35,219 bases of DNA from an uncultured virus (IMG/VR IMGVR_UViG_3300030202_001399). Taxonomy: Duplodnaviria; Heunggongvirae; Uroviricota; Caudoviricetes. The stretch is from IMG/VR virus record IMGVR_UViG_3300030202_001399. One strand, given 5' to 3'. Numbering within the stretch: the stretch's first letter is position 1; the number at the start of each line of letters is the position of its first letter. Of the stretch, positions 2,404 to 33,283 are shown one piece after another. The position numbers and the translations under genes were made by a program. Under the pieces are notes generated by a model. The model had not been told where the DNA came from and ran no database searches. It was given only the letters and a program-made list of their open reading frames with translations.

Positions 2404-3945
2404 CTAATTACCTGTCGCACTACCGCCAAGAGTCATGATTGCCCACTTACCTGTGTAGGTAGCAGTTGTGAGCGTTCTTGCTGTTATGGAAGCCTCTACT
2501 TCTACTGGCCCTTTGTCTTCAGGGAAAGGCACAGTAACCGCATTGATTAGATAGTCAGCAAGTTGAATGTCTATCTCCTCACCTGAGTCTTTTGTGAACT
2601 TCAATCTCAAAGCACCACTAGATTCGTTGTCGTTTCTTAACTCATCCCATAGTTTCGTGTCTGTTATCAACATGGTTAGAGTCAACTCATACGTTCTCTG
2701 ACCGGGTAGATGAGCAGATGCAATCTGCCTGTTGTAGTTACCAATGAACCTCTGTGGTAGTAGGTTGTTGTTGATGACAAGAGAGCCACCCTTTACCTTA
2801 CCCAAGGATTGACCGAACAGTGTGATGTCTCCATCAGAGAATAAGAATGGGTAGTTGTCTGTTAGCGTGGAACTGTAATTCACGATTCCCCTACCGTTTT
2901 CAGCATCGCTTAGAGCAGTCAAGGATGCGTTTCCACCAAGAGGAACATAGTTAGCAGGAGGGTCGAAAGCCCTTCTTGAAACCAAATCCAATGAACACTT
3001 TAGTTCCTGACCCTCTTCAAAGTTCAGAGTAAGAGTGTTTACCTGACATCCTGTGAAGATTCTAGAGTACATGTTCTCGTTAGGTGATAGGGAATCTAGA
3101 GCAGTGGTGTTAGAATGTCCTGCTTTTCTGTATACCACATCAAGAGCGAAGGATGGAAGAACGTCATCATCTGCTTCACTGAAAGTGTAGTTGAACATGT
3201 CTGAGCCATTGTATACCTGCAAGTTGCTGATAGCCAAGTCAGAACCACCACCATCTATCTCAGGGTAGTTGTTGTGTTCGTAAGACCTGAGTATCCTGTT
3301 TGCTGATGCATTGACAGCAATTGCATTCTCTCCATTTGATGTGCTTAGAGTAGCATGTGTTCCTGACAGGGTGTAGGATAGTTTGCCTAGTGCGTAGTAG
3401 AGCCAAGAGCCGTTGTTGAGAGAGACATCTAACGAGCCTCCGCTTACTGTCTCCGCTCCTTTGTACTGATAGTCGAAGTTCCTACCACCTGCGGCAGCAA
3501 GGTTGAGTTGCTTCATCTCTACCTCTACGTTTGGTGGTGTGAATGTGTTAACTAGTCCTAACCAACTATCAGAGTGTATTCTAGGATTAGTACCGCCATC
3601 TCTAGAAGCGTAGAGAGGTGCGCCAAACGAGAGTATTGTTGCATCCATAGTTCCCGAAGTTACCGCACTACCGTTGGAGTCAACTGGTGCGGAATCTATG
3701 ACTATGGTTGTAGCAGTGTTATCTACGATAGTTCGATATGAAGTTGCATCGTTTGAGGCCAATGCTCCAATCTTCACGGTGCAGCCGATATACAAATCAG
3801 GGACTAAATGAACTAGGGTTTGCTGACCGCTTGATAGTGTTAGAGTTGTACTGCTTGATAGAACAGCATCTTGAAAATACAAGTCCAACTCAGGACTCAT
3901 TCCTACTTGTGCATTTGCTCCTACGAATACTTCATTACTTGCCAT
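2404..3945 (-). CDS. Major tail tube protein (siphovirus-like) with inserted beta-rich domains
   Basis: 513 aa, S/T/G-rich. Tube-like motifs (FTGCQVNTLTLNFEEGQELKCSL, INNNL, GQRTYELTLTM); directly upstream of chaperones and TMP; no sheath gene nearby. Confidence 0.75.
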   Translation of the reverse strand: MASNEVFVGANAQVGMSPELDLYFQDAVLSSSTTLTLSSGQQTLVHLVPDLYIGCTVKIGALASNDATSYRTIVDNTATTIVIDSAPVDSNGSAVTSGTMDATILSFGAPLYASRDGGTNPRIHSDSWLGLVNTFTPPNVEVEMKQLNLAAAGGRNFDYQYKGAETVSGGSLDVSLNNGSWLYYALGKLSYTLSGTHATLSTSNGENAIAVNASANRILRSYEHNNYPEIDGGGSDLAISNLQVYNGSDMFNYTFSEADDDVLPSFALDVVYRKAGHSNTTALDSLSPNENMYSRIFTGCQVNTLTLNFEEGQELKCSLDLVSRRAFDPPANYVPLGGNASLTALSDAENGRGIVNYSSTLTDNYPFLFSDGDITLFGQSLGKVKGGSLVINNNLLPQRFIGNYNRQIASAHLPGQRTYELTLTMLITDTKLWDELRNDNESSGALRLKFTKDSGEEIDIQLADYLINAVTVPFPEDKGPVEVEASITARTLTTATYTGKWAIMTLGGSATGN

Positions 3946-7136: not shown

Positions 7137-7841
7137 CTATGCCAACCACTTTGCCCAAGCGACTCCTTTACTCAAAGCACCCGCTAACCCAAGACCACTT
7201 TGAGGTGGTGTATACGATGGTTGACCAGTAGCGGGGTCAATCCAGTATGGATTATTGAACTGGTCGTAGCCAGTAGGAGGTATAGGATATCCACTACCAT
7301 TGTTCATAGCCATTTGCTGTTGCATCATCTGTTGATTCATTCCTCCCATAGCAGGTGCGCCTTGTATGTTTGCTGGATTCATACCTTGTGGATTTCCTAC
7401 TTGTTGTTGCATTCCTCCCATCTGTGTATCTTGTGAAGGAGATGAGAATCCCTGTGATTCTAGATATTGTTGCTTCGCCATTCTCCTCTGCATGATGACT
7501 TCTGAGTTAACAGCAGTTGCAAGTAGGTTGACAATATCTAAGTCAATGTTCTCTTGAGTTATGGATGTAAAGTCACTTAACGAATCAGGATGTATTTCTA
7601 AATCTCCATTAGTGTTAGATACAAACTTCATCTTAACCAACATTTGACTAACTACTCTAGCCATTACATCTTCCATCATTTTCTCAAATGCACCAAGGAA
7701 TTGTTCTCCGTGATATTGGAAGAACTCTTCAACATGGTTTTCTTGTAGAGTTAAGAGATTATTTGTCATCTTAAATTGCGATTGTCCCATTGTATTCATT
7801 TGCGATGACAACGCAGAGTTGCTTGTTCCGAACAGACCCAT
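7137..7841 (-). CDS. Hypothetical protein, Q/M/G/P-rich low-complexity C-half, terminal amphipathic helix
   Basis: 234 aa; TGATG-coupled to the upstream gene; ends GLAGALSKGVAWAKWLA. Confidence 0.75.
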   Translation of the reverse strand: MGLFGTSNSALSSQMNTMGQSQFKMTNNLLTLQENHVEEFFQYHGEQFLGAFEKMMEDVMARVVSQMLVKMKFVSNTNGDLEIHPDSLSDFTSITQENIDLDIVNLLATAVNSEVIMQRRMAKQQYLESQGFSSPSQDTQMGGMQQQVGNPQGMNPANIQGAPAMGGMNQQMMQQQMAMNNGSGYPIPPTGYDQFNNPYWIDPATGQPSYTPPQSGLGLAGALSKGVAWAKWLA

Positions 7842-8521
7842 CAGTTCCCCTCCTCCGGTGTGGTAATCTTAACGCCTTCGGTCAATAAAGATTTAACCTT
7901 AGCAGACATTGCTGCATTCTCTATCATAAGTGCATACAACTGTTCTTCCTTTGAAGAGGCATCATTAGCGGGAGGGGTGATTCCCCAACCTAATGCAGTT
8001 AGAGAATTAATATCCTCTTGTTTTAGTTGTGTTATTGGCCCTGACTTTACAAGATTGACAGGATTAAGACTTCTAGCAGATGGAATGTATGCACTGAAAG
8101 AAAGACCATGTTCTTCTGCTAATATCTGTTGTTCTAACATTTCATACTGCATGTGTATCTGAGCATGTTTCTCACAGTAAGTCCCTCTCATTGGATATCC
8201 TTTGCGTACCTTGTGCAGTGGAAGTGGGGGTCTTCTGCTATCATTAGCAGTCCATACTTTTTGTGTACCACATATTACACATCTATCTTTTATGTTATAT
8301 TTGAAACTGTAAGGAACTTTCAACAAAGTTTTCTTTTCAGGTTTCAAAACTTTAACAATTTCTTTCAATTGTTTCTTTGGCTTCATTGATTTATACTCGT
8401 ATGGCATTATCGGTCCTGCTGCTCTTGCAGCAGTTAGCCTATCCATAAATGGATTAGGGCCAGCATTTATTGTTGCGTTCGTTGCTCCTATCAAACTAGG
8501 GGGGTTAAATTGCATAGACAT
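7841..8521 (-). CDS. Hypothetical protein with putative Zn-binding motif
   Basis: 226 aa; CVIC...YCEKH; AGGAG upstream. Confidence 0.7.
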   Translation of the reverse strand: MSMQFNPPSLIGATNATINAGPNPFMDRLTAARAAGPIMPYEYKSMKPKKQLKEIVKVLKPEKKTLLKVPYSFKYNIKDRCVICGTQKVWTANDSRRPPLPLHKVRKGYPMRGTYCEKHAQIHMQYEMLEQQILAEEHGLSFSAYIPSARSLNPVNLVKSGPITQLKQEDINSLTALGWGITPPANDASSKEEQLYALMIENAAMSAKVKSLLTEGVKITTPEEGN

Positions 8522-8542
8522 TTTCTTTTTCTCCTATCAATC

Positions 8543-8567
8543 CAAGCCTACCTTGCGGTGAGACTTG
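8543..8567 (-). promoter_or_regulatory. GNRA-tetraloop RNA hairpin between the GTPase and Zn-protein genes
   Basis: Minus strand CAAGTCT(C)ACC-GCAA-GGTAGGCTTG: 10 bp stem with one G-U pair and one bulge. Confidence 0.45.
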
Positions 8568-8581
8568 AGTAGTCTGACGTA

Positions 8582-9253
8582 TCAGTAGTCTTTTATCATT
8601 GTTAATACTCCACGATAAACCATTTCTGAATCAGACTTAGCACTCACTATGTATTTGTGACATGGAATGCCCGTTTCATTTAATTTCTGAAGTCCGGGTT
8701 TGAAGGACGCAAATATTGGATGGTCTTCTATCTTTCCAACATGTGGATATTTGTCTTTCCAAAGGTCATACTTGTTTGCCCATAAACCAACTGCCAACGG
8801 GTAGTCATGGTCTTGTTTCTTTTTCTTTCTTCCACCAATTGTATAGTATGGATTACATATTGTATCTACAAGAAACGTCCAAGATAATTGTTGTTCAATA
8901 TCATAGTGCTTGTCTAAATGTCTATCGTCAAACAAGAATACTATGTATTTGACATGTCTTTCTCTCATATCTCTAACCCATTCTTCCCAATATACTGTCT
9001 GTCCTCCTATATCAGCAGTCTTAATAGTATGGGCATCACCGTCTAACTTGACAAATTTTCTAGTTGCTCGATGTCTCCCAACTGTTCTTTTTTGTATTTC
9101 AGGGACTTCTCCTCTAGTCATCAACTGTCGATGCAGTGTTGTCTTTCCTGCTTTGCTTGCTCCATAGATACCGAAGTTGATAGCATGAAGGCGGTTATAC
9201 AGTTTATTCATTGCTTCTACAATGAGTATTGCAAACCCTGCCATTACCGACAC
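8582..9253 (-). CDS. Ras-superfamily small GTPase, Arf/Sar1-like
   Basis: G1 GASKAGKTT, G2 RTVG, G3 DIGGQ, IVFLFD strand, G4 ANKYD, G5 SAK; hydrophobic/amphipathic N-terminal helix; GAGGTGA RBS before GTG. Confidence 0.9.
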   Translation of the reverse strand: MSVMAGFAILIVEAMNKLYNRLHAINFGIYGASKAGKTTLHRQLMTRGEVPEIQKRTVGRHRATRKFVKLDGDAHTIKTADIGGQTVYWEEWVRDMRERHVKYIVFLFDDRHLDKHYDIEQQLSWTFLVDTICNPYYTIGGRKKKKQDHDYPLAVGLWANKYDLWKDKYPHVGKIEDHPIFASFKPGLQKLNETGIPCHKYIVSAKSDSEMVYRGVLTMIKDY

Positions 9254-9307
9254 ACTATCACCTCTTCAGTGAGTCGGATGTCGAAGAGCATTAAAATGGT
9301 TGAGAAT

Positions 9308-9529
9308 CTAATGCCCGCCCCAAAGTGAAGAAAGAATGTGCCATCCACCTGAAAACATATCATAGCCTAACACTGCTATTCCATGTCCAAGGAAGAAACT
9401 AGCAATAGATGAGATGATTCCCCAAAGCCAAAACCTTGCTCTCAGAAACCAAACATCAGCAGAATGCGCTCGTTGTAAATCATATGCGAGAGTGGATTCA
9501 TCCATCCCGAATAAGATTTCACTTACCAT
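9308..9529 (-). CDS. Small membrane protein
   Basis: 73 aa; TM-like FWLWGIISSIASFFLGHGIAVLGY followed by a Trp-containing amphipathic tail; GAGTGA upstream. Confidence 0.7.
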   Translation of the reverse strand: MVSEILFGMDESTLAYDLQRAHSADVWFLRARFWLWGIISSIASFFLGHGIAVLGYDMFSGGWHILSSLWGGH

Positions 9530-9534
9530 TCAAA

Positions 9535-9963
9535 TCACTCTTGGAATCCTGTCAAGAAAGTAGGACTAACTGTTTGCACTTCTTGTTGCTTTTGTATTGT
9601 AGGGAGATTTGGGTCTCCATACACTGTTTGTCCAACACCGAATTGTTGTTGGAAACCTCTGAATGATTCCCTTACTCTCTTTCGGTTTTCTTCATCTCTT
9701 GCTTTTCTGTTCCAGTATGAATTGATTTGTCTTTGAAGTAGGAAATCTTCAATGTAGTCGTTAACGAACAAATCAAACAATGCCTTTAGAATGACTATGC
9801 CACCTACGGTTAATACCCCGAATATCATAGCCACAGGATATGGCCCGTATGCATTCACAAAAGTAGAACCATATTGTGAAAAGAAGTATACGTTGATTCC
9901 GCTAACTGCTCCGACAAATAGAACAGTCATTATCAGTCTAGTATCTGTATCTATGCTTGGCAT
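9535..9963 (-). CDS. Two-TM membrane protein with charged/Q-rich C-terminal tail
   Basis: ATG 9963 after GAGGTGA; TMs LIMTVLFVGAVSGINVYFF and VAMIFGVLTVGGIVILKALF. Confidence 0.75.
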   Translation of the reverse strand: MPSIDTDTRLIMTVLFVGAVSGINVYFFSQYGSTFVNAYGPYPVAMIFGVLTVGGIVILKALFDLFVNDYIEDFLLQRQINSYWNRKARDEENRKRVRESFRGFQQQFGVGQTVYGDPNLPTIQKQQEVQTVSPTFLTGFQE

Positions 9964-9973
9964 GTTAATCACC

Positions 9974-10270
9974 TCAAGCAAAGTTCACAGAAGCAGTTCC
10001 TGTGCCAGTGATTTGAACGAATATCCCATTCGCTACAAGAACACCGTGTAGGTCTTGCTCGATAGTTTGAGCAGTACCTCCTGCATGTAATACTAGACGA
10101 GCAACCTCCTTCTTGCCCGATGTGGATGAATCGTCACTGTCCCATATCTTGACAGTCATTACAGCATTTGCTGTTGATGTAGCGTGAACACTCATTATCT
10201 TAGCGTGGTGCTTTACTGCTACTGTGCTTGTAGAAAGAACTCCTGTGCTGTTGCAGGTAGGTGATGCCAT
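9974..10270 (-). CDS. Small beta-rich putative virion protein
   Basis: Real start likely ATG 10270 (MASPTCNSTG), TGATG-coupled; S/T/V-rich, ends NGIFVQITGTGTASVNFA. Confidence 0.6.
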   Translation of the reverse strand: MASPTCNSTGVLSTSTVAVKHHAKIMSVHATSTANAVMTVKIWDSDDSSTSGKKEVARLVLHAGGTAQTIEQDLHGVLVANGIFVQITGTGTASVNFA

Positions 10271-10770
10271 CACTCTGCCTCCGACAATCTCTCTACTAGG
10301 TCTGCTTTCTTTCCTTCTGTGGAAAGACCCTTTTCTGTCAAAACAACCTTGAGTTCCTTGACGGTTAGTTCTGACCAATCCATATCCAACGGTGCTTCAC
10401 CATCTTCTACGACTTCTTCTACCACTGGCTCTTCTACCACTGGTTCTTCGACTACGGGAGTCTCCTTGATGAGATTAGGTATGAAGGACTTCTTGGCTGA
10501 TGGGAACAATGCAGCCTTAACTGCTTTAGCATCTCCCTCTAGTCCAAACTCCTTCTTGAGTAAGTTTAGATTGTACTCATTCAAACTGAGAACTTCTGTT
10601 GAATCAGTAGAATCTAGTTCTACTAGAAGCCCTTGGTCTCCTAGCATTCCTATTGCTATCCCCAAAGGAACAATAGTTTCTTCTTGCGCTGTTAATGCGT
10701 ATGTATTGCCAGCCCTTCTAAGTAGAAGAGGACCGGATACTCTATGTCTTGCTAACTTTACCTTTGCCAT
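10270..10770 (-). CDS. Protein with C-terminal SAP/HeH-like DNA-binding motif
   Basis: DWSELTVKELKVVLTEKGLSTEGKKADLVERL matches the SAP consensus; preceded by a PVVEE-repeat linker; AAGGTGA RBS. Confidence 0.75.
   Translation of the reverse strand: MAKVKLARHRVSGPLLLRRAGNTYALTAQEETIVPLGIAIGMLGDQGLLVELDSTDSTEVLSLNEYNLNLLKKEFGLEGDAKAVKAALFPSAKKSFIPNLIKETPVVEEPVVEEPVVEEVVEDGEAPLDMDWSELTVKELKVVLTEKGLSTEGKKADLVERLSEAE
10403..10458 (-). repeat. 15-bp coding tandem repeat (PVVEE x3)
   Basis: tcttctaccactgg occurs twice plus degenerate copies; protein PVVEEPVVEEPVVEEVVE. Confidence 0.7.
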
Positions 10771-11205: not shown

Positions 11206-12567
11206 TCAAGCACTCTTAATGTTGGTTATCTTACCTTGTCCCTTGAAGAACGAACATCCGGTTTCAGCCATAGTTCGGTACATACCTTGGTTTCCAAGTT
11301 TGCCAACACCGAATGGGTTTCCACTAGTGATACCATCCTCGAAATACTGAGTAGGCTTCATTACAGACAACCACATGTGGTCTGTGTCTAGAATGAGTAT
11401 GTCACTCAGAGTGTTGGTTGTGTTTGCACCAGTTGATGGCATGTCCTTTGTTGGAATGATTGGGATATCATAGTATGTTGCAACTCTGAATCCAACCTCT
11501 GCACCCTTAACTCCACGAACTCCGTTGTGGGTAGGTACGATTTCTTTCCTGTCCATGAACCTCTCTTGGCTTTGTAGTAAGTCAGCAAGGTGCTGTACTG
11601 TATCATATCCAGTTAGGATAACCTTCGGGTTTCCACCGTTCTGCCTGATTCTCCTAATCATGTCGTTAAGCATGGTTAGAGTTAGAACTCTAGCATCGCC
11701 AGCAGCATATCCTGCACCGAAGTCAACCTCTGCATCCAAGAAGGAAGCAGTTCCAGTTGCACTGTTGCTTGAAACAGACACAGTTCGGGTAGTACCGAAT
11801 AGTCTTACTACATCAGCGACTACTGCGGAGTTGTCTCCGTTGTTAGCACCAGTATCCAATAGGTTTGCGTTGTACATAGCAGCAATCTCACCAGCAGATG
11901 AAACAATCTTTAGTAGAGAAGTATAGTTTCTCTCGATTGTTGTTGCAGTACCATCATCGTATCTCTCAAGAGGCATAACTAGCATCTTGCTCTGAGTCTC
12001 TGCGTGTAGTTTACCCATGTCTTCTCTTACGATAGCACGAATGTCACCAACACCATCATCGATTGCAGCAAGTTCCATTCCAAGTTCTGAGAACTCGAAT
12101 AGATGAGCAACAGTCTTTGGACTGATGTATAGTTTCTCATACTGTGGTGCAATAGGTGGGATATCGTTTCCAGTTCCTAGAGTTGCGTTCTCACCAACAC
12201 CACCGATTTTGTCTGCTCTTGGTGTGTCTGAGCCTTCAGCACCAGTTCCTATTCCGAATGCAGAACCTGAACCACCTTCTGCTCTGCTCTTTAGAACTCT
12301 CCATCCACTAGATGTGTATGGTCTCTTTGCGAGCATAGCAAGAGGGTTAACCTCTTGGTTTAGCATTGACCATACTTTCTGTCCGTAAAGAACATTGTAT
12401 AGGTCTCCTAACCCACTAGCAGCAGAAAACGGGTTGCTTGCTGCATCGTGGGGCGTTCCGAAACCACCAACGACACCAGCCGCTTTCAACAGGGCGTTAC
12501 CTGATGCGCCAGCATAGCCGTATGTGGCTGCTTCTAAGTCTTTTACTGTGTTAATATATCCACTCAT
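11206..12567 (-). CDS. Major capsid protein (HK97 fold)
   Basis: 453 aa immediately after the protease/scaffold; G/A-rich; P-domain-like C-terminus (TYYDIPIIPTKDMP...ILILDTDH...FFKGQGKITNI); AAGGTGA RBS. Confidence 0.9.
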   Translation of the reverse strand: MSGYINTVKDLEAATYGYAGASGNALLKAAGVVGGFGTPHDAASNPFSAASGLGDLYNVLYGQKVWSMLNQEVNPLAMLAKRPYTSSGWRVLKSRAEGGSGSAFGIGTGAEGSDTPRADKIGGVGENATLGTGNDIPPIAPQYEKLYISPKTVAHLFEFSELGMELAAIDDGVGDIRAIVREDMGKLHAETQSKMLVMPLERYDDGTATTIERNYTSLLKIVSSAGEIAAMYNANLLDTGANNGDNSAVVADVVRLFGTTRTVSVSSNSATGTASFLDAEVDFGAGYAAGDARVLTLTMLNDMIRRIRQNGGNPKVILTGYDTVQHLADLLQSQERFMDRKEIVPTHNGVRGVKGAEVGFRVATYYDIPIIPTKDMPSTGANTTNTLSDILILDTDHMWLSVMKPTQYFEDGITSGNPFGVGKLGNQGMYRTMAETGCSFFKGQGKITNIKSA

Positions 12568-13845: not shown

Positions 13846-16410
13846 TTATTGAGGTAGTTCTAAATTACTATACTTATCCTTTGTAATGTCGATAATTCCT
13901 TCATCAGATGAGTCTTCTAACATTTCTTGTTTCTTGCCTGTAAATACTATCCAAGACTTCTTTTCATCTAAGGGAACAACACGGAAATGTATTCTAGATT
14001 GAAACTTATCTCCTTCCATTCTATATTCGTGATACCCATCTCGTTGAACACCAAAGATTAACTCTCCACTATCTAGTATCTTGTTGCTGTCTATCTTGTC
14101 TGACACCTTTGCAGGGAATTTTCCTGACTTACCAAACAAATCGAATATGTCTTCGGGCTTATCTATGTCAATTAACCAAGCCATTCTTTTGTTATCTGTC
14201 TCAATCACAAAATCGATGTTACCATCTTCTCGTTGTCTAACTTCAAACTCTCCTGCTAGTTCTTCTTCTTCGTCTTTTTCTATATTCTCAGGAGACACAT
14301 CAAATCTGTTTGGAGAAAGGAAAACAAAAGCATCTTGATTTTTCATCCAAGCCAGTAGTTCTTTTGGTTTACCTTCAAAGATTTCATCATATGCGTCTTC
14401 CTCTGTAATCCTGAGTTTTTCTTCTAGTTCGTCAAACTCTATTGCTTTTTGATTGTCCTCTATGATTTTTCTAATTGCAACTCTTAGTTTGGACTTTCTA
14501 GATTTCATTAGTTTCTCTAGTTGACCCTTCCAATCATCCATGTTGTAAAGAGCATTCTTCTGCATTAATGAATCACCATCAAAACCGTAGACAGTAAATC
14601 CATCTAGTTCATGCTTGCAGATTATCTCTGCTTCACCGTGAACGTAATCGGTAACAATATACTTCTTTATCTTCTTCTTGTTCTTTTTCTCTCTTTGCAA
14701 TTCTGCAATAACTGTTAGAGGATTTGCTAAATCAGATGGTTTGAGGAAAGGATGTCTTGGCACTAATGCTTTCTTTGTCTTAGTGGCTAGTTGTTCTAGT
14801 GTTTCTAGTTTATCTGATTCATCGACTTCAGGCAACTCTATCACTTTAGCAGAATAGAGACTGAAGCCCTTTCCTTTCTTAGTAACCTCATCAACCTTAA
14901 CACGAATGATTGTACCTATGTCAACCTCAACTTTAGTATTCAATGCCTTACCAACAGGAAGATAATTTTTATCATCAAGTTCTACTGTCTTCATCTCTCT
15001 AGTTTGTTCCGCAGTCAATGGGCCAATACCCATAGTGTAAGAATGTAGGCCACTCTTTGTCTTCTTATCCTCTAGGACTATTACATCTAAATCGACAAAC
15101 TTCTTCCACTTAATCCACTTTGGGTTTTTCTTTCTACCCATGTAATAAGTTGATTCTATATCTTTAATGACAACACCTTCTGAAGTAGGCATGTCCATAA
15201 TTTTCTCTGCGTATTCTCCAACTTCCTCCATAGAATCAGCAATTCTTGTATCCTTTTTGGAAGGGAATGCTAATGCATCAGACGAATGCTGTGAATATTG
15301 GTAAAACATAATGTTGATTCTTTCTCTCAAAGGCTCATCCATCATATCTTTACCTTCATGTTTCATTACATCAAACACATGCGCTCTTAGAGTTGTATCA
15401 GGTATCTTTTTCTTGAAAATGTGAGTGATTACATTTGCTCTGTGTAGAGCATCATCTCCTTGAAAGAGAAGAAGTTCCCCATCTAATATACAATCACCTA
15501 TACCTTTCTTTTCCATTTTCTCTACAATTTCAGGACACTTATCTGTTATATCCTTTTGATTGTATGAATAGACTTTGATGTTATTTCCTACCTTGTGAAT
15601 CTGTATTCTCATCCCGTCATATTTCTCTTGAACGACATACTCACCACTTAGTCCTTTGATATCTTTCATATCATCTAGTTCAAAGATACGATACATTGGT
15701 TTGTTCGGTATGATAAAATCAATGTCTTCTTTCTGTTCTTCTGACTTTGCAATGTCTATGTCTTTCAAGGATTCCCATTTGTCTTCTGAATAACTCTCAT
15801 CATATACTTCTTCTAATATAGAAAGTGCTTCCTTGAATTTCCCCTTGACTCTCTTTGAATCCTTGTCATCTCCATAATGCTCTATGATGTAAAGAGGAAT
15901 ATCTTTTTCTTCTAAATCTAAACCCATAAATCCTTGAGTGATTTCATCAGGTTTTAGTTCGTTCTCTTCCCATGCTTTCTTGGGTATTGGATTTGAGTGA
16001 CTTCTTAATGCATAGTGAATGAAGGCTGCAAAGGTGGCTTTATCCTCCAACAATACCTCTAATACCTTGTCTCCTAATTGTTTTGAGAATGGGTCTGACG
16101 CACCTTTTGACTCAAATCTCATTCTCTTTACATCTTCATAGATTCTTCTAGCAAGAAGACTCTCTGCTTCGTATACCTTATCATCAAAGAGTTCCTTCTC
16201 TGTAATGTGTTCCTTCAGTTCAGAAGCGAACTCTCCTAGTCCGTCATACTCTTCACGAATAGACTTGACAGTTTCCTTCCATTTATTGCCATATTCCTTT
16301 TGGTTTTCCTTTGCAGATAGATATGCATAACGTACTCTCTCAAAGAAATCTAAAACTCTTTTTGATAGAGCCTTAGTTTCCTTTTCAAAGGACACGCCTG
16401 ATGTTGTCAT
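13846..16410 (-). CDS. lig: ATP-dependent DNA ligase with N-terminal helical domain and C-terminal LigD-phosphoesterase-like domain
   Basis: Motif I QEKYDGMR, III ILDGEL, IIIa HVFDVM, IV EGVVIK, V WIKWKK/LDVIV, then an OB fold. Confidence 0.88.
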   Translation of the reverse strand: MTTSGVSFEKETKALSKRVLDFFERVRYAYLSAKENQKEYGNKWKETVKSIREEYDGLGEFASELKEHITEKELFDDKVYEAESLLARRIYEDVKRMRFESKGASDPFSKQLGDKVLEVLLEDKATFAAFIHYALRSHSNPIPKKAWEENELKPDEITQGFMGLDLEEKDIPLYIIEHYGDDKDSKRVKGKFKEALSILEEVYDESYSEDKWESLKDIDIAKSEEQKEDIDFIIPNKPMYRIFELDDMKDIKGLSGEYVVQEKYDGMRIQIHKVGNNIKVYSYNQKDITDKCPEIVEKMEKKGIGDCILDGELLLFQGDDALHRANVITHIFKKKIPDTTLRAHVFDVMKHEGKDMMDEPLRERINIMFYQYSQHSSDALAFPSKKDTRIADSMEEVGEYAEKIMDMPTSEGVVIKDIESTYYMGRKKNPKWIKWKKFVDLDVIVLEDKKTKSGLHSYTMGIGPLTAEQTREMKTVELDDKNYLPVGKALNTKVEVDIGTIIRVKVDEVTKKGKGFSLYSAKVIELPEVDESDKLETLEQLATKTKKALVPRHPFLKPSDLANPLTVIAELQREKKNKKKIKKYIVTDYVHGEAEIICKHELDGFTVYGFDGDSLMQKNALYNMDDWKGQLEKLMKSRKSKLRVAIRKIIEDNQKAIEFDELEEKLRITEEDAYDEIFEGKPKELLAWMKNQDAFVFLSPNRFDVSPENIEKDEEEELAGEFEVRQREDGNIDFVIETDNKRMAWLIDIDKPEDIFDLFGKSGKFPAKVSDKIDSNKILDSGELIFGVQRDGYHEYRMEGDKFQSRIHFRVVPLDEKKSWIVFTGKKQEMLEDSSDEGIIDITKDKYSNLELPQ

Positions 16411-20921: not shown

Positions 20922-21209
20922 TCACCACAGTTTTTTACATGCTAGGCACTTAGGGGTAGTAATTCTACCTTTACATTGGTCACAGTTATGCCTTGCTCTG
21001 AAATTCTTTCTCCTAGCAGGGTCTTTGTGTGTTCCACCACCACGATTCTTACCCTTTCTCTTGTAATTACCGTAGCCTTTAGCACCAGCATGAATCTTCT
21101 TTCCTTCATGAGTTAGCATCATTATCTTCTTACCATCTCTGTCAGAAGGATAAACAGTGCCAACTCTCATGTCTTTCTTATCTTTCTTAACTACTGTAAA
21201 CCAACTCAT
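20922..21209 (-). CDS. Basic small protein with MSWFTVVK leader, Cys/His-rich
   Basis: 95 aa; KIHAGAKGY...HKDPARRKNFRARHNC...KKLW resembles a widespread viral domain of unknown function. Confidence 0.7.
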   Translation of the reverse strand: MSWFTVVKKDKKDMRVGTVYPSDRDGKKIMMLTHEGKKIHAGAKGYGNYKRKGKNRGGGTHKDPARRKNFRARHNCDQCKGRITTPKCLACKKLW

Positions 21210-21853: not shown

Positions 21854-22822
21854 CTAACCCCTCCTCTTGAACCAGCCATGAAGACCTTCATCTTTTTCTC
21901 GGCTAAACGTTCCAGCCTTTCTTCTCTTCGGCTTCCCGCCTCTTCTTTTGTAATCCTTACAAGCAGAACAGGTCGGGCGACATCTTCTCTTTGTTCCTTT
22001 TGATGCATCTTTTCTACCACAAGGTTCTGTTCCGGGTTTATCATCATCACAAGAAGCACAACTGACCCAATCTTTCACTAGCATGTCTTCCCAAGATTTT
22101 TTGACATCCCTATCTAAATACGCATCAGCAATTAGAAGCCCTGCTTCCTTTCCAATTTCGATGTCGCTTGGATAATGGTTGCCCATTTTAACTCTTGATA
22201 GTGATATCTTTCCGGCAAGTTTCATCAACTCCTTCTCTTTGTCAGGATACTCCTTACCTAGAATCTTGGCTAATGCATAGGCTTCCATCGCATGACCGCT
22301 TGGAAACGATGGACTATCATCTGTATCCGTTGTAGATTCTATCTTGTCTGAAATTTCATATGGTCTTGGTCTTCCGTATTTTACTTTGAGTTTGATTGTA
22401 TGAATATCAATATCTTCAATCAAATCCTCTCTATCCTCTTTACTCTCACCAACAACCTTCAACATCATCTCGTTGTTATTTTGGTCTAGGTCTTCCATTT
22501 CATCCTCATCAATCTTGTTAGCGTTCATCATAGCGAGAACTTTAGGGAGTTCTTTCTCATTTTCAGGATGCTCATAGTCAGGGAAGTCTACATCGAATGA
22601 AGGCTCAGACTCAAACAGTCTTCTCTTTTCTTCTGATAGATTCTTAGGAGTGTATTTTGATTCTGCTTTTTTGACTGAGTTACCCCAATTAGCAGCACCG
22701 ACTTTTCTACACTGCACTAATGCTCCTGAAGCATAAGCGGAAGGCCACTTTTTGTATCTGCTTCTGACCTTACGATAACAAGCATCTTTCTCTTTCTTTA
22801 ATTCCTCAAACCAAAGAGTCAT
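21854..22822 (-). CDS. PAP2/vanadium-haloperoxidase-family phosphatase flanked by Cys-rich basic mini-domains
   Basis: Three PAP2 motifs KVKYGRPRP, SFPSGH, SRVKMGNHYPSD; leader MTLWFEELKK. Confidence 0.85.
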   Translation of the reverse strand: MTLWFEELKKEKDACYRKVRSRYKKWPSAYASGALVQCRKVGAANWGNSVKKAESKYTPKNLSEEKRRLFESEPSFDVDFPDYEHPENEKELPKVLAMMNANKIDEDEMEDLDQNNNEMMLKVVGESKEDREDLIEDIDIHTIKLKVKYGRPRPYEISDKIESTTDTDDSPSFPSGHAMEAYALAKILGKEYPDKEKELMKLAGKISLSRVKMGNHYPSDIEIGKEAGLLIADAYLDRDVKKSWEDMLVKDWVSCASCDDDKPGTEPCGRKDASKGTKRRCRPTCSACKDYKRRGGKPKRRKAGTFSREKDEGLHGWFKRRG

Positions 22823-24549: not shown

Positions 24550-25902
24550 TTATTCATCCTCGTTCTTTACTATTGCTTCGAGTTTATCCATCTCCGACAT
24601 CTTATCATTGTCGTAATATTTTACAACGCTGTCTATGTCGATTTCATACTTTGCGAAATCATAGTTCTTATCATCCTTGTGATTTTCATATTTCATGAGT
24701 TTGAACAGTTCTACCTTTCTAGCATTGTACCAACCTGCTTTCTTATGGCTCTTTTTCATACGAAGTAGTTCTACTAATATCTCAGCATTTTTCTTCTTCA
24801 ATTTGAAATATGGCATACACTTGCTTAGTATTTCACCGACATCTTTCCTAGAGTAGAAATTTAGTCTATTAATTGGTTTAGTATCTTGTGGAGATTTTTG
24901 GTCTAGATGTAGTCTGCCACACCCTAGAGACTTGTGCATCTCTAGCATGAAGGCTTTTCCTCTATCTCCTGTTGCTACCAACCCGACTCTAGGATTGTGG
25001 TTCTTATCCATTGTAATGTAGCCATCAGAGTCAATAAACGCAGCAGTGTAAGCATAGATGTCTTTCTTTATCTCATCACTCATTTTATACAATGCACCAT
25101 CTACAACAGTTACATTCGCAGTACGTGCCATTTTTGAAATCATAGCAGGAGAAGATTTCTTGAATAGATTTTGTGGCAATCTCTCATGTACTTGTCTTGC
25201 TGATATTCCCTGCTCTTCACTGACTAGTTTTACTATGTGTCTTTTGATAAGTTCCTTTGGCCCGATATTTACGATATACTTTCTGATACGACTGTTGACT
25301 GCTCTTTTACTGTTAGTCATCTCTTTTGTTAACTTAGCGTATTCCTCTCCATACGCCATACCATCTCTGTCTAATCGAGATTCCCAATATTTGCAAAGGG
25401 TATCTACTATTTCTCTACGGGTAGACTCGTCATGAATTAAAGATAGTTTGATAATATTCTCTTCTGATAATGTCATATCCTTCAATGCAGATTTGTATTT
25501 CTTAATCCAATATATCTTGTTGATACTTTCATCTAAGTGTGAGGAGTATGCGTCAATTAGATTTTCTATTGATTTGGTTACTGCAATTTTTGGTTCTCCC
25601 TTCAATGTTCTTCGATACATCTTAAGTTCCTTGACCATCATTGGGATATCCTTACCCTCTATCTCATACTTTCTCAAATCATTTCTTATTGCTTTTCTAG
25701 CATCTGAAAGACCAACATTATAATGCTCTGCAAATCTCTTCTCTAATTCAAAATGACTACTCAAGGGTTGTTCCTCTAACCATTGATACTTTGATACATC
25801 AGCCTCAAGTTCAGCAGTGAGAGTTTTCTGTCTCTCTCGGAGTTCTTCTTCTTGGTCAGCGAGTTCTGCCTTTTCCCTGAATTTATCTCCCCTTTCACTC
25901 AT
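24550..25902 (-). CDS. Helical N-domain + winged-HTH + single-motif LAGLIDADG endonuclease-like domain
   Basis: YAYTAAFIDSDGYI (25021-25056) followed by LGCGRL and MPYFKLKKKNAE, I-CreI-like; GISARQVHERL HTH; GAGGTGA RBS. Confidence 0.78.
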   Translation of the reverse strand: MSERGDKFREKAELADQEEELRERQKTLTAELEADVSKYQWLEEQPLSSHFELEKRFAEHYNVGLSDARKAIRNDLRKYEIEGKDIPMMVKELKMYRRTLKGEPKIAVTKSIENLIDAYSSHLDESINKIYWIKKYKSALKDMTLSEENIIKLSLIHDESTRREIVDTLCKYWESRLDRDGMAYGEEYAKLTKEMTNSKRAVNSRIRKYIVNIGPKELIKRHIVKLVSEEQGISARQVHERLPQNLFKKSSPAMISKMARTANVTVVDGALYKMSDEIKKDIYAYTAAFIDSDGYITMDKNHNPRVGLVATGDRGKAFMLEMHKSLGCGRLHLDQKSPQDTKPINRLNFYSRKDVGEILSKCMPYFKLKKKNAEILVELLRMKKSHKKAGWYNARKVELFKLMKYENHKDDKNYDFAKYEIDIDSVVKYYDNDKMSEMDKLEAIVKNEDE

Positions 25903-25911
25903 ACTCTCACC

Positions 25912-27348
25912 TCAAAAATTCATACCCAATACTCCGGGTACACTACGCCGAGTGGTAGTAGGTTCATCAAAGATGTCCAAGTCATCCAGTAAAATAAATT
26001 GATTTCCTGTTCCTTGTGAAGCCGCATTAGCCAATGCCAAACTCATAACTAAATCGTCATGTGCGCCGACTCCCTCGAACTTTCCATTAGCAGTAATTGA
26101 GAACATTGACAGTTCTTCCACCAAAGCACCAGTAAGTCTTCTACTTGCGTTATCACCATACGGCATAATTATCTTCTGATTCTCAATGTTCATCTGAAGA
26201 TTTAGGATTATCTCTTGTTTATTTTTTCTCGTTGTATTGAAGTCTCTGATATTCAAATCGGTCATGCTTTTCAACTCTTGAGTGAAAGCCTTTGCGAAAG
26301 TGTTAGTCTCAAACAGAATCTCTTCAGGCTCAAAGACCTTACCAATCAAACGTATCTTCTCTATGTTTTCCCTGAACTCTATGTTCTTCGCTCTGTCTAC
26401 GTGAACAATTGCTTTGTTCTGCTCATCATCAACTTCTAGAACTGTAATAACATTGTAGTCACCATCAGTAGAAATAGCAGGGTCAACACCAACATAGTAT
26501 CTGTAACCCTTGTCTTTTCTGTTTCCAAGTTTCAGAACATATTCTTTGTTCTTGCACTTCTCTATGAACTCAGGATTGAATAACGCAGTTCCAGTGGAAA
26601 TAGGGACACATAGGTATTCTCTTGTAAACTTGAGAGAACCTATCTCAGCCTTTCTTTGCATTAGAGCATCATAGTCCCAACGCTCAGGCCAAAGCGGTTC
26701 GTTTAATGCATTGAGACAGGGGTATTTCGTTACAGTATATGCTGCATTTTCTTCTAACTGTGCAAAGATATCTGTGTAAGTAAATGGAGTTCCAATCATT
26801 CTGAGTTTGGAAGTGTGATGTAGAGTAGGAATCATGTCACCAAAGAACCAATCAGTAACTCGTTGAATACCTGCAAGACTAAACTCCTTCAAAGGGTCAT
26901 CAATGATAATCTCCTGTGGGTGAAGACCACGAATCTGAGAACCAACGGAACGCTCTAAAATCGCATTGCCGTTGGTAAGTTGAATGTTTCCAATTGCCCA
27001 TCCACGACTAGGCTTGAATTGTTTTAGTGCTGGCAGGTTGAAATACCTGTCAATTTCCCTCATGTGAACGAGTGTCTGTTTTTGGTTAGAAGAAATGTAA
27101 AGCATTTGATATGGTGGTTCTTGAAACACAAGATTCCACACTACCCAACTGTGCATAAACACAGATTTTCCGTGGTCTCTTGAGCAAATAATAACTGTAC
27201 GGTCAGTCTTATCCATTGAGTCTAGCCACTCTTTCATGTACTCAGGATACATCATTCCTAGAACATTCTGAAAGAAATAAGGAAAGGAGTTTTTTGACAG
27301 TTCCATATCCATGCTAGATACGAAATCTAAGTTGTTTATTTCAGGCAC
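25912..27348 (-). CDS. terL: Terminase large subunit
   Basis: Walker A CSRDHGKS, IRGLHP, Walker B IIIDDP, IGTP, nuclease GVDPA and HDDLVMSLALA; probable GTG 27348 (TAGTG overlap). Confidence 0.93.
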   Translation of the reverse strand: MPEINNLDFVSSMDMELSKNSFPYFFQNVLGMMYPEYMKEWLDSMDKTDRTVIICSRDHGKSVFMHSWVVWNLVFQEPPYQMLYISSNQKQTLVHMREIDRYFNLPALKQFKPSRGWAIGNIQLTNGNAILERSVGSQIRGLHPQEIIIDDPLKEFSLAGIQRVTDWFFGDMIPTLHHTSKLRMIGTPFTYTDIFAQLEENAAYTVTKYPCLNALNEPLWPERWDYDALMQRKAEIGSLKFTREYLCVPISTGTALFNPEFIEKCKNKEYVLKLGNRKDKGYRYYVGVDPAISTDGDYNVITVLEVDDEQNKAIVHVDRAKNIEFRENIEKIRLIGKVFEPEEILFETNTFAKAFTQELKSMTDLNIRDFNTTRKNKQEIILNLQMNIENQKIIMPYGDNASRRLTGALVEELSMFSITANGKFEGVGAHDDLVMSLALANAASQGTGNQFILLDDLDIFDEPTTTRRSVPGVLGMNF

Positions 27349-27833
27349 TAAATTAGCCCCCTCATCATTGGGAAGAACCATGAGGTGTTCTTCATTATGC
27401 CCCAATCATCACCATAGCGTTCAGTGAACTTGTCAGTCAGTTCCTTTGGAATCCCCATCATATCCTCTCGTTGATAACCTGCTCTCTCATTCATAGCAGT
27501 CCATTTTGCCTGTGGCATCTTCGTTGCACGAAACCCTGCTATCTTTGGTTTGTTGCCAAGTTTACCTTTTCTGTAAGTTAACATTGCCTTCCAGTTTCCC
27601 CCACCTTTCGGTTGGTCTTTTCCTCTAGCCTTCATACCACCAAGGATAGCATAGTCTCCCATATCTGTGTAACCAGCGATTCCAACAACTTCACCATCAT
27701 TGGTTCTAACTATCCAATTCTGTATGTCATACCATGAAGGTGCGTTTCTTGAAAATGGGTCATCAGGGTTATCCCTGTTCCACATGCGGATTGCTTCTGC
27801 TTCAGAAACTTCCTTGATTTGTATGTCTGCCAT
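27348..27833 (-). CDS. Possible GNAT-fold acetyltransferase
   Basis: ATG 27833 after AGGTGAGG; WIVRTNDGEVVGIAGY..AILGGMKARG..KGGGNWKAML..NERAGY follows the GNAT strand/motif A/motif B order. Confidence 0.45.
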   Translation of the reverse strand: MADIQIKEVSEAEAIRMWNRDNPDDPFSRNAPSWYDIQNWIVRTNDGEVVGIAGYTDMGDYAILGGMKARGKDQPKGGGNWKAMLTYRKGKLGNKPKIAGFRATKMPQAKWTAMNERAGYQREDMMGIPKELTDKFTERYGDDWGIMKNTSWFFPMMRGLI

Positions 27834-32624: not shown

Positions 32625-33283
32625 TGTAACTTCTCCTGCATCTTGTCTCTTACATCCAACCAAACTTCAGGATGATTCTGTGCTAGAACCTCCTTGATGA
32701 CCTGCATCTGATGAACGATGATAGTGTCTTGCCTCTTATGCACCAGTTTGCCCTTAAATTCCAGTAAATATTTCAGAGACTCACGCACTTCCTTCGCTAA
32801 TTTAGTCAATGAGTCGATATATTTCGGGTCTGTTGAGTCTTCAGCAAAAAGTGTATCAATTTTTTGCTCCAATCTCTGAACATTCACACTCAGAGTCTCG
32901 ATTTCGTCAACTTCTCTCGTTGCAATCAGGTTCGCAGCAGATTGTTGGACAATTGGCTGAAGATGTTTCTCCATATGTCGCATAACTTGGACATCTGAGC
33001 ATCCTACCATCTCTCCGACTGCTGAAGGAGTGACTTCTCCGGCATGAAGTTGGGCTTCTATCTCTGCTCTCATGGGGTTGGAGCAAATTCTACAACTTGG
33101 GTTTGAAGATTCGACATATCCGCCCATGTGATTCCTCTGATGTCGTGCAGATGTTCCACTTTTCCAGTTCATCTGTTGGTCGAGAGCGTCTGCGGTGTAA
33201 CTCATGGCTTCCAAATCAGCCTCAAGTTGACTCCTATCCTCATGCATACACAAAGGACAACGCTTTCTCGTAATCATACTCAC
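32621..33283 (-). CDS. Tandem CxxC-HTH-HxxxH protein with coiled-coil; candidate terminase small subunit
   Basis: CPLC..RHQRNH and CRIC..RHMEKH repeats, then oligomerisation-like helices. The TerS call is inference. Confidence 0.5.
   Translation of the reverse strand: MSMITRKRCPLCMHEDRSQLEADLEAMSYTADALDQQMNWKSGTSARHQRNHMGGYVESSNPSCRICSNPMRAEIEAQLHAGEVTPSAVGEMVGCSDVQVMRHMEKHLQPIVQQSAANLIATREVDEIETLSVNVQRLEQKIDTLFAEDSTDPKYIDSLTKLAKEVRESLKYLLEFKGKLVHKRQDTIIVHQMQVIKEVLAQNHPEVWLDVRDKMQEKLQ

Follow-up and report, generated by a model that had tools for sequence, protein, structure and literature searches.

Do tailed viruses of prokaryotes carry small GTPases of the Arf kind, which in eukaryotic cells serve to bend membranes, and to what use might they put them? 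The question is raised by a gene at positions 8582..9253, on the minus strand, of the IMG/VR virus record IMGVR_UViG_3300030202_001399, a stretch of 35,219 nucleotides from an uncultured virus (Duplodnaviria; Heunggongvirae; Uroviricota; Caudoviricetes). We refer to this whole stretch as the window. An earlier reading, made by a model from the letters of the DNA and the translations of its open reading frames (ORFs) (here, the sequence-only reading), had proposed a viral GTPase with Arf-family signatures and an N-terminal amphipathic helix. Our analysis indicates that the product is almost certainly a small GTPase and that it is probably Arf-like, and not Ras-, Rab- or MglA-like. The description that fits best is that of a new family, specific to viruses, within or beside the extended Arf group (Arf/Arl/Sar1/SR-beta/G-alpha). 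The sequence-only reading was largely right in kind, that is, in calling the protein viral, Arf-like and equipped with an N-terminal helix. The identity of the virus as an archaeal virus, the status of the gene as a core gene and a five-gene membrane cassette around it are added here; the first and the last of these had been missed by that reading.

A conserved viral GTPase gene and its motifs

This is a genuine gene, conserved among its relatives and kept by purifying selection. The span 8582..9253 is open exactly as previously marked, although on the minus strand, a point that the sequence-only reading had overlooked; over 8582-9253 the plus-strand frame is filled with stops and gives no open reading. 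All motif strings that it had quoted (RTVG, DIGGQ, TVYWEEW, GGRKKKKQ, ANKYD, SAK and an extension of about 22 residues) are found in the minus-strand translation. The features of the gene and of its protein, P0001, are the following.

8582..9253, minus strand: small GTPase gene, protein P0001, 223 amino acids (aa), GTG start; core single-copy gene of the virus group
9188..9250, minus strand: N-terminal helix, residues 2-22; helix by DSSP on the structural model, predicted local distance difference test score (pLDDT) 65-77
9137..9163, minus strand: G1 / P-loop GASKAGKTT, residues 31-39; G31, G36, K37, T38 and T39 invariant
9077..9088, minus strand: G2 / switch I RTVG, residues 56-59; R56, T57 and G59 invariant
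8978..9013, minus strand: G3 / switch II DIGGQTVYWEEW, residues 81-92; D81, G83, G84, W89 and W92 invariant
8813..8848, minus strand: polybasic beta-hairpin insert YYTIGGRKKKKQ, residues 136-147, between helix 3 and strand 5
8765..8776, minus strand: G4 NKYD, residues 160-163; N160, K161 and D163 invariant
8636..8644, minus strand: G5 SAK, residues 204-206; invariant in the window branch

Invariant columns were judged in an alignment of 26 relatives. For counts we used two sets: 80 loci that are the closest relatives of the window (the window branch), and, for a sister branch typified by P0137, either 75 ORFs or 80 loci. The P-loop pattern GxxxxGK[ST] and the switch I pattern RT-x-[GH] are each present in 80/80 window-branch loci and in 74/75 sister-branch ORFs, and NKxD (within ANKYD, residues 159-163) is present in 80/80 and 75/75. 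In switch II, DIGGQ occupies residues 81-85 and TVYWEEW residues 86-92. The Trp that had been singled out in the latter string holds up well, with W89 and W92 invariant: DxGG followed by Trp at +8 and +11 is found in all 80 window-branch loci, and the Trp residues in 65-66 of the 66 sister sequences that bear the motif. The 'catalytic Gln' of DIGGQ fares differently. The string itself is present, but the residue after DxGG is Gln in 48 and Glu in 32 of the 80 closest loci; in the 75 sister-branch ORFs it is Gln in 50, Glu in 12 and Asp in 4, the motif not being found in the remaining 9. Single distant members have His or Ala at this position; the His of P0134 is what we take to be a Sar1 feature. 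A carboxylate or an amide is thus kept after DxGG in most members, but a catalytic Gln is no fixed feature. G5 reads SAK in 80/80 loci of the window branch, and in the sister branch MAT (61/75) or SAQ (9/75). The C-terminus, ...GVLTMIKDY, is conserved within the family and is devoid of Cys, whereas Rab, Ras and Rho proteins carry a C-terminal Cys motif for prenylation.

Altogether 351 proteins match P0001 at E<=1e-3 (among 514 candidates), nearly all of them marine metagenomic, and a few carry the JGI label 'GTPase SAR1 family protein'. A relative is encoded in 511 of 515 pattern-matched IMG/VR stretches. Among 1.84 billion representatives there are 58 matches at E<=1e-3, mostly fragments of this same viral GTPase family. 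The ratio of non-synonymous to synonymous substitution rates (dN/dS) has a median of 0.067 in the 60 usable pairs of 150 sampled, a figure that is approximate because dS, at about 1.8, is saturated. An AlphaFold2 (AF2) model of P0001, built from 32 sequences, reaches a pLDDT of 89.4 and a predicted template modelling score (pTM) of 0.86. With all five G motifs, a Ras-like fold and 511 IMG/VR stretches encoding relatives, the proposal of a viral GTPase is well borne out. Reference collections say little about it: PHROGs holds no family matching the GTPase, the generic small_GTP domain is the sole NCBIfam model to match P0001 and does so below its cut-off, and tblastn of the GTPase against 50,697 phage records gives zero matches. 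The single match in a PADLOC scan, of a Type II restriction-enzyme model to the sister-branch GTPase P0137 (E 0.014), was taken as chance.

Two elements outside the G motifs are candidates for membrane attachment. The N-terminal extension, MSVMAGFAILIVEAMNKLYNRL, comprises residues 1-22, starts with a GTG codon and has G6, F7 and E13 invariant in the close family. Its predicted helix overlays the N-terminal helix of full-length Arl2-GTP and that of membrane-bound myristoylated Arf1, in alignments that start at residues 6-8 of the model. The extension begins MSVMAGF, with no Gly at position 2, and the GTPase is thus presumably not myristoylatable. The N-terminal helix had been called amphipathic, and this description clearly applies to one half of it: residues 11-22 are amphipathic (hydrophobic moment 0.66, reached by 1.5% of 2000 shuffles), and residues 2-12 are uniformly hydrophobic (mean hydrophobicity 0.85, moment 0.12). 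No 19-residue window of P0001 reaches Kyte-Doolittle 1.6, the mark of a classical transmembrane (TM) segment. The second element is the basic insert GGRKKKKQ (residues 140-147), noted previously and found to be conserved as a polybasic patch in 80/80 loci. In the AF2 model it belongs to a hairpin with strands at 136-139 and 142-145; an 8-residue window holds at least 5 Lys/Arg in all 80 window-branch loci and at least 4 in the sister branch. The net charge of the whole protein is +9 for the window GTPase and +14 in the sister branch. Two of these results weigh against membrane binding. For the whole helix, a moment of 0.35 is reached by 8.5% of shuffles, so that its amphipathicity is not significant, and a protein with a net charge of +9 to +14 might just as well bind nucleic acids.

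The place of the family among small GTPases

The leaning towards Arf comes from structure, from a bridging protein and from a tree. The AF2 model (a single model) resembles GTP-state Arf structures. By entry title, 42 of the first 43 rows of VIA-align are Arf, Arl or ArfR proteins, and 42 Arf/Arl entries precede the first Rab. In a search of 48,161 chains that does not depend on Foldseek, the top places go to Arf6 (18.4), SR-beta (17.6), LokiRagO (17.6) and Sar1 (17.4), with Gs, Arl13B and Gi next and the mimivirus Rab (16.4) as the first Rab. Such a structural ranking leans to Arf and is no proof.

The bridging protein is P0170, a 203-aa orphan that matches P0001 at E 1.7e-5 in the library of 1.84 billion. 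Aligned with it by hhalign, the viral family scores 111 over 134 columns (probability 98.9%, E 2.9e-17), and the alignment takes in GKTT, [RP]TVG, DVGGE with Trp at +8 and +11, the basic patch and NKxD-x-W. The best Pfam family of P0170 is Arf (57.2 bits vs 35.0 for Ras), and among its 60 PDB matches listed, all are G-alpha or Arl2/Arl3. In the Arl3 alignment that HMMER returned in this search, DiGGQ and a Trp at +11 stand in the same spacing as in the viral family. P0167 likewise has Arf as its best Pfam family (27.2 bits). Together with P0080 (22.4 bits), these two are the only ones above the Pfam Arf cut-off among the family members examined. P0170 was not found in IMG/VR, and a search of 5.8 billion proteins retrieves P0170 itself alone.

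For contrast we used two groups of bacterial proteins: A4, with 18 sequences of the Ras family (Pfam Ras 105 bits), and A5, with 8 sequences that we call MglA-like, a label that we take from motifs familiar to us and from Pfam ATP_bind_1/Arf matches. With hhalign, the viral family aligns to A4 at 95.3% (E 2e-8, score 57.6) and to A5 at 18.2% (score 29.4). A maximum-likelihood (ML) tree of 56 rows contains a split, supported at 99/92, that sets the viral branches, P0167 and P0170 against both bacterial groups; the two viral branches are themselves joined at 99/93. The tree is partial, with the fragments P0143 and P0158 left out. The phylogeny that the sequence-only reading had called for is in this way carried out in part, for the viral clade against bacterial Ras-family and MglA-like proteins. 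Grouping with MglA, which would have spoken against an Arf affinity, is contradicted both by the split and by the hhalign result of 18.2%. Among clusters of the ESM Atlas, the nearest non-viral ones are bacterial G-domain proteins, 17-67% of them with Pfam Arf, and the look-alikes include one Asgard cluster in which all members have Pfam Arf. We take this resemblance as a lead only.

A number of results count against an Arf assignment. All Pfam matches of P0001 are below cut-off, and Arf (17.0 bits, cut-off 22.3) scores under both Roc (21.9, cut-off 27) and MMR_HSR1 (20.8) as well as under its own cut-off; SRPRB reaches 12.5 bits against a cut-off of 25. In the 32 family members, matches at E<=0.01 are to MMR_HSR1 in 22, Roc in 15, SRPRB in 14, Ras in 12 and Arf in 11. 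Moreover, of 14 prokaryote genomes without Arf that served as controls, 12 hold matches that clear the cut-off of the Pfam Arf model, which means that weak Arf matches are unspecific; at E<=1e-9 the model gives 0 matches in the control genomes. Compared with PDB sequences, the family profile has no significant match, the nearest being KRas (E 0.04) and Arl8 (0.08-0.11). Foldseek ranks Rab/Ypt or Ras entries throughout its first 50 places, and the VIA margin of Arf over Rab is just about 2 Z units. P0170 and P0167 are orphans on contigs of about 1.6 kb, and their long branches were flagged by the tree tool. The ML tree is built of viral and bacterial rows and these two orphans, without eukaryotic, Asgard, Sar1, Rag, Roc or ArvA references. 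The alternation of Gln with Glu after DxGG points the same way. So does G5, where we take SAK to be the Ras/Rab form and CAT the Arf form; with a Ras/Rab-like SAK beside Arf-like features, the motifs are mixed.

The proposed Arf kinship accordingly stands in part. The P0170 bridge and the VIA ranking speak for it; the score below the Pfam Arf cut-off and the precedence of Rab and Ras in Foldseek speak against it. The protein is not filed in Pfam Arf because it falls below the threshold and because the defining switch of that family, in which GTP binding moves the interswitch by a two-residue register shift and expels the helix, is putative here. The premise that an Arf-type G domain with a membrane helix is largely a eukaryotic/Asgard signature turns out to be too narrow, since ArvA is reported from Euryarchaeota and DPANN archaea (PMC10927574) and the bacterial clusters above carry Pfam Arf in 17-67%.

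Set beside known systems, the viral GTPase shares most with Arf/Arl proteins (PF00025; Arf6 2a5f_A, Arl1 4dcn_A, GerdArfR1 8oum_A). The helix ahead of strand 1 overlays theirs, and GKTT, DxGG followed by Gln and the Trp at +11 (in the Arl3 alignment) are common to both. It differs from them in its scores below the Pfam cut-off, the Gln/Glu alternation, the G5 SAK of the window branch, the polybasic beta-hairpin inserted between helix 3 and strand 5, and in being encoded by an archaeal virus with fixed partner genes of its own. With Sar1 it has in common an unmodified, bulky hydrophobic N-terminal helix of about 22 residues, as well as the 'GTPase SAR1 family protein' labels of JGI. Unlike Sar1, it has the polybasic insert; it has no significant sequence match to Sar1, and no Sec12-, Sec23- or Sec24-like partner is recognisable among its viral neighbours. 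SR-beta is set apart by a full TM segment, which the viral protein does not have, and no SR-alpha/SRX-like partner was recognised. The mimivirus Rab (5xc5_A) is a Rab of a virus of eukaryotes, whereas the window protein is Arf-like, belongs to a tailed virus of archaea and forms a family of its own. With the bacterial MglA-like (A5) and Ras-family (A4) proteins it shares the G-domain fold and the G1, G3 and G4 motifs; these are distinguished by weaker hhalign scores (29.4 and 57.6, against 111 for P0170), by the tree split and by the lack of a roadblock/MglB-like neighbour. Roc (PF08477) occurs in tandem with a COR domain, while the viral protein is a stand-alone G domain of 223 aa scoring 21.9 bits against 27. 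It differs from Rab, Ras and Rho in having no C-terminal Cys for prenylation.

ArvA (OapA) deserves separate comment. This small GTPase, whose N-terminus forms a hydrophobic helix, is described as widespread among Euryarchaeota and DPANN archaea and as lying in an operon with ArvB (DUF2073) and ArvC (DUF2072) in about 95% and 91% of ArvA genomes (PMC10927574). Like the viral protein, it is a small GTPase of the archaeal world whose N-terminal hydrophobic helix is proposed for the membrane, for which Arf is nearest by sensitive comparison only, and which lies in a small operon with a Cys-rich protein (PMC10927574). The likeness is one of description. The window GTPase belongs to a virus and is all but missing from cellular genomes, as far as these were scanned, and its neighbours and their counterparts in the sister-branch locus L088 do not match DUF2073 or DUF2072 at E<=1.

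A magrovirus-like virus and its five-gene cassette

All large ORFs of the window are read from the minus strand. Together they make up a tailed-virus structural module, with a large terminase, portal, prohead protease, HK97-type capsid protein, tail tube protein and tail assembly chaperone. The GTPase and its neighbours (the cassette described below) are situated between the head genes and the tail genes. Three members of the module matter most for what follows.

2404..3945, minus strand: tail tube protein (PF18906, 84 bits; phrog_290)
11206..12567, minus strand: HK97-type major capsid protein (phrog_24667, PF17236)
13846..16410, minus strand: ATP-dependent DNA ligase of 854 aa, inside the structural module (PF01068, 103.7 bits)

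By tblastn against the 50,697 phage records, all 11 capsid matches are to tailed viruses of archaea, namely 8 Haloarcula viruses, 2 viruses of Methanomassiliicoccales and 1 Methanofastidiosa virus. The viruses described as magroviruses are marine, measure 65-100 kb and were assigned to Marine Group II Euryarchaeota; groups A and B have a ligase within the structural module, a GroEL is another feature, and the capsid proteins have their likeness in haloviruses only (Philosof et al. 2017, PMC5434244). Contigs related to the window reach 98-118 kb, and the sequencing runs in which the cassette is found are all marine metagenomes (20 rows, 8 studies). From the archaeal-type capsid, the ligase in the module, the marine runs and the contig sizes, we conclude that the window derives from a magrovirus-like archaeal virus; the archaeal replication module of such viruses falls beyond the ends of the window. 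Its presumed host is a Marine Group II (Poseidoniales) archaeon, an assignment taken from the literature.

Within this group the GTPase is a core gene. Of 80 capsid-seeded loci that were fetched, 55 extend at least 2.8 kb downstream, and the GTPase is present in 55/55, about 1.7 kb past the capsid gene. The two proteins are about equally conserved, with median identities of 78.6% (capsid protein) and 76.7% (GTPase). The sister branch has GTPases of about 240 aa at about 30% identity; it is viral as well, with 81 of 82 stretches in IMG/VR and contigs as long as 118 kb, and one of its loci contains a GroEL-type chaperonin gene. The family profile finds exactly 1 copy in each of 3 magrovirus records (two of which are 91% and 100% complete) and no copy in HVTV-1, HCTV-1 and two methanogen-associated viruses (0/4). 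Since the GTPase equals the capsid protein in conservation and, alone among the proteins of the region, can be recognised in both branches, it is probably essential to the virus.

Cellular genomes, as far as scanned, are essentially without this family. When 185,579 species, each represented by one genome, were scanned with a sequence pattern, 2 loci emerged, both in a single metagenome-assembled genome (MAG). In 401 genomes of the phylum of this MAG, the profile matches the MAG itself and one 25-bit stretch within an ORF of 869 aa. The MAG is titled Maricaulis sp. (G004; L082, L083, L245, L247, L248) and has magrovirus-type GTPases on three different contigs, two of which also bear capsid, protease and cassette genes. 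These are almost certainly viral contigs mis-binned into a bacterial MAG. As a separate observation, small GTPases matching Pfam Arf at E<=1e-9 occur in 56 of 401 bacterial genomes of one phylum. Thirty loci from these (L249-L278, G013-G397) are of two kinds: Ras-family proteins of about 165 aa with WDIHGEE in place of the usual DTAGQ, and MglA-like proteins of about 190 aa with GTPGQxRFxFMW and TKQD.

What is new at this locus is a conserved five-gene cassette, present in two deeply diverged virus branches, in which the GTPase is gene 3 (80/80 loci). In the 80 window-branch loci (tblastn counts), its order is fixed and its genes are co-oriented. The other members, with TM segments predicted from Kyte-Doolittle windows, are the following.

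9535..9981, minus strand: gene 1, 148 aa, 2 predicted TM segments (15-33, 46-64) and a charged, Q-rich C-terminal tail; 77/80 loci
9308..9529, minus strand: gene 2, 73 aa, 1 predicted TM segment (35-53); 80/80 loci
7841..8521, minus strand: gene 4, 226-aa Cys/His protein directly downstream of the GTPase; 80/80 loci
7137..7841, minus strand: gene 5, 234-aa Q/M/G/N-rich protein starting MGLFG; 74/80 loci

The predicted architecture of the gene 1 product is holin-like. In the sister branch, tblastn detects the GTPase in 78/80 loci and none of the other proteins of the window, the capsid protein within 7 kb included. The same architecture is nevertheless found there: sister-branch locus L088 encodes, in order, a 143-aa protein with 2 TM segments and a basic tail, a 75-aa protein with 1 TM segment (35-53), the GTPase, a 298-aa Cys/His protein and a 211-aa Q-rich protein starting MGLFG. 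The Cys/His protein of the window matches its 298-aa counterpart by blastp at E 6.9e-4. The pair of GTPase and Cys/His protein is present in 80/80 loci of each branch, with the sister counterpart at +811 nucleotides. The small membrane proteins of the sister branch are detectable in just 15-17 of 80 loci; they diverge too fast to be counted there.

In the Cys/His protein, C81, G85, G108, C116 and H119 are invariant across both branches, and the core of its AF2 model (residues 40-140) has a pLDDT of 80-92. This fold has no Foldseek match in the PDB at E<=0.001, and its best VIA Z among the 48,161 chains is 4.3. Predictions of its complex with the GTPase, GTP and Mg gave ipSAE (interaction prediction score from aligned errors) values of 0.35, 0.00 and 0.00, which count neither way. 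For gene 5, the MGLFG start is found in 44 of 72 downstream ORFs picked in the window branch, with a median Q+M+G+N fraction of 0.36, and the Q-rich protein is detectable in 42/80 sister-branch loci. The MGLFG N-terminus is kept both in the window (7137-7841, minus) and in L088 (8680-9315, plus), while the low-complexity remainder no longer aligns; its conservation suggests a processed or membrane-inserting end. A Pfam search of the four neighbours and the five L088 proteins at E<=1 returned no holin, ArfGAP, Sec7, roadblock, DUF2072 or DUF2073 family. The earlier remark that no roadblock partner could be recognised is in agreement with this.

A small part of the cassette turns up in two RNA libraries. 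In a run labelled as a metatranscriptome (X19), a 15.7-kb contig with a word depth of 17.9 carries a relative about 92% identical that covers 8016-9981, and it represents either carried-over viral DNA or very long late transcripts.

Several further genes of the window are worth recording. Between the capsid gene and the cassette, 10270-10770 (minus) encodes a 166-aa protein with a C-terminal SAP domain (PF02037, E 3.6e-10, 39.7 bits) after VEEP repeats, present in 58/80 related loci; the ORF overlaps another at 9974-10378 by about 100 nucleotides, so that the start of one or the other may be wrongly placed. The SAP motif binds DNA and is found mainly in eukaryotes. At 21854-22822 (minus), a 322-aa protein has a PAP2 (acid/lipid phosphatase) domain (PF01569, 51.3 bits) and an N-terminal stretch matching phrog_727; such a lipid-phosphate phosphatase could also touch host membrane chemistry. 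A 95-aa protein at 20922-21209 (minus) has DUF5754 (PF19058, 31.5 bits; phrog_7595). The large terminase at 25912-27405 (minus) has Bacteroides DAC/SJC phages as its best phage matches (27.8% identity, E about 1e-36), and with a Bacteroides-phage-like terminase next to a capsid protein matched in archaeal viruses only, the ancestry of the module is mosaic. Upstream of the terminase, ORFs of 970 and 638 aa (27838-30750 and 30747-32663, minus) have no Pfam or PHROG match at E<=1e-3. Between the large terminase and the portal, a 450-aa gene at 24550-25902 (minus) has an HNH-endonuclease-like C-terminal part (phrog_5046, E 3.9e-6), which fits the 'inserted nuclease' published for magrovirus structural modules (PMC5434244).

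A possible membrane switch and its alternatives

What could such a GTPase do for the virus? Nucleotide-dependent membrane binding, partnership with the neighbours, late timing and a role in egress are what we infer. The G domain would cycle between GDP and GTP, with Gln or Glu at position 85 serving hydrolysis. In its GTP state, the helix at the N-terminus and also the polybasic hairpin would attach the protein to the cytoplasmic membrane of the host, where it would act with the two small membrane proteins encoded upstream and the two soluble proteins encoded downstream. Late in infection, the five-gene cassette might then remodel or breach the host membrane for virion release, or alternatively serve membrane-associated assembly. 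GTP-dependent attachment of this sort is described for Arf and Sar1, an N-terminal amphipathic helix being given as the defining feature of the Arf family (10.1101/2024.02.28.582541), and is proposed for ArvA (PMC10927574).

We hold a membrane-binding switch to be slightly more likely than not. The joint claim, a virus-specific small GTPase of the extended Arf type that is a core late gene and acts as a membrane-binding switch, we regard as evenly balanced. A role in egress, the function that we think likeliest for the cassette, is tentative, at about one chance in a few. It is favoured over other late roles because the 148-aa neighbour with 2 TM segments fits the build of holins, described as small TM proteins with a charged C-terminal domain in a 2024 review, according to which the egress players of tailed archaeal viruses are 'completely uncharacterized' and holins elusive (PMC10791045). 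More speculative still is the idea that the whole cassette is the egress machine of tailed archaeal viruses, timed by GTP, in which helix insertion and the membrane proteins would deform or perforate the membrane. Against an egress role, the cassette lies at the usual site of head-tail connector genes, and a morphogenetic role is equally compatible with that position.

Of the competing explanations, the strongest is that the protein is a generic Ras-superfamily switch (Ras/Rab/Roc-like), its helix being structural or protein-binding and its Arf likeness reflecting the common G-domain fold. The Rab/Ypt and Ras entries that fill the first 50 Foldseek ranks, Pfam scores of Roc and MMR_HSR1 above that of Arf, KRas as the best PDB sequence match of the profile, an hhalign probability that is still 95.3% with the bacterial Ras-family group, SAK in all 80 loci and the low-score laxity of the Arf model all speak for it. 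It has more difficulty with the 42 Arf/Arl entries that VIA puts before the first Rab, an hhalign score about twice as high with P0170 as with the Ras-family group (111 vs 57.6), DxGG with a Trp at +11 as in Arl3, a C-terminus (...TMIKDY) without a Cys for prenylation, and the 99/92 split from the bacterial Ras-family group, and we consider it rather unlikely. Next comes a factor of virion morphogenesis, for example a GTPase that acts as chaperone or checkpoint while heads are completed or joined to tails, and whose basic surface binds DNA or capsid in place of membrane. The gene is co-oriented with the capsid and tail-tube genes between which it lies, is conserved as strongly as the capsid protein and has a product of net charge +9 to +14; its absence from all 4 of the other archaeal tailed viruses searched may mean that it serves a lineage-specific assembly step. 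However, its fixed upstream neighbours are two membrane proteins, a soluble assembly factor needs no N-terminal hydrophobic helix and no structural family of PHROGs matches the GTPase, which makes this explanation unlikely. Slightly less likely again is an SR-beta-like GTPase, constitutively tethered by its first 12 residues and involved, be it as receptor or as assembly factor, in the insertion or organisation of the viral membrane proteins encoded next to it. SRPRB matches in 14 of 32 members at E<=0.01, the uniform hydrophobicity of residues 2-12 and the two membrane-protein genes directly upstream agree with such a tether; E13 (invariant), N16 and K17, by contrast, break the hydrophobic run, no window qualifies as a classical TM segment, and SRPRB scores half its cut-off on P0001 (12.5 bits vs 25).

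Two other explanations concern where the gene came from or whether it is accessory. It could be a captured host vesiculation GTPase of the ArvA kind, driving or blocking the formation of extracellular vesicles by the host. ArvA combines an N-terminal hydrophobic helix, an MMR_HSR1 annotation, Arf as nearest relative by comparison of hidden Markov models (HMM-HMM) and a Zn-ribbon operon partner (PMC10927574), and in the viral family MMR_HSR1 is the commonest weak Pfam match (22/32) and a Cys/His protein is encoded downstream. We judge capture to be improbable, as DUF2073 and DUF2072 find no match among the neighbours even at E<=1, the 2 relatives from the scan of 185,579 species both belong to one MAG holding viral contigs, and Thermoplasmatota and Poseidoniales have 0 occurrences in the main text of the ArvA paper (PMC10927574). 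An accessory gene for defence, counter-defence or superinfection exclusion is the least probable of all, to the point of being negligible: such systems often contain P-loop NTPases, and a protein at the membrane would be well placed for exclusion, but PADLOC at E<=0.1 has no match for the GTPase and its four neighbours, accessory genes are patchy where this one is a single-copy core gene at a fixed position, and purifying selection is strong.

A virus-specific GTPase of the extended Arf type that may bind membranes, the reading that we prefer, did not come up in the magrovirus papers searched. The word 'GTPase' has 0 occurrences in the main texts and supplements (about 8 million characters of annotation tables) of PMC5434244, PMC10160649 and PMC11706807, figure labels lying outside this search, and 0 occurrences in papers naming Aoguangviridae or Magrovirales. 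On small GTPases in archaeal or other prokaryotic viruses, the literature search returned just a review speculating that enveloped viruses exploit host OapA/ArvA. Automated pipelines, for their part, already label some members as SAR1-family GTPases.

The family extends Arf-like G domains with a predicted N-terminal membrane helix to viruses of non-Asgard archaea, and as such it bears on the age and mobility of the Arf/Sar/G-alpha lineage. It also offers a candidate for a membrane step in the infection cycle of tailed archaeal viruses. Although virus and host are uncultured, the protein, being small and of soluble size, lends itself to assays of nucleotide binding, GTPase activity and attachment to liposomes. 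If the cassette were indeed an egress machine, a prokaryotic virus would be using the membrane-remodelling principle of Arf/Sar proteins, and very abundant viruses would be a possible vehicle for moving Arf-like GTPases between lineages.

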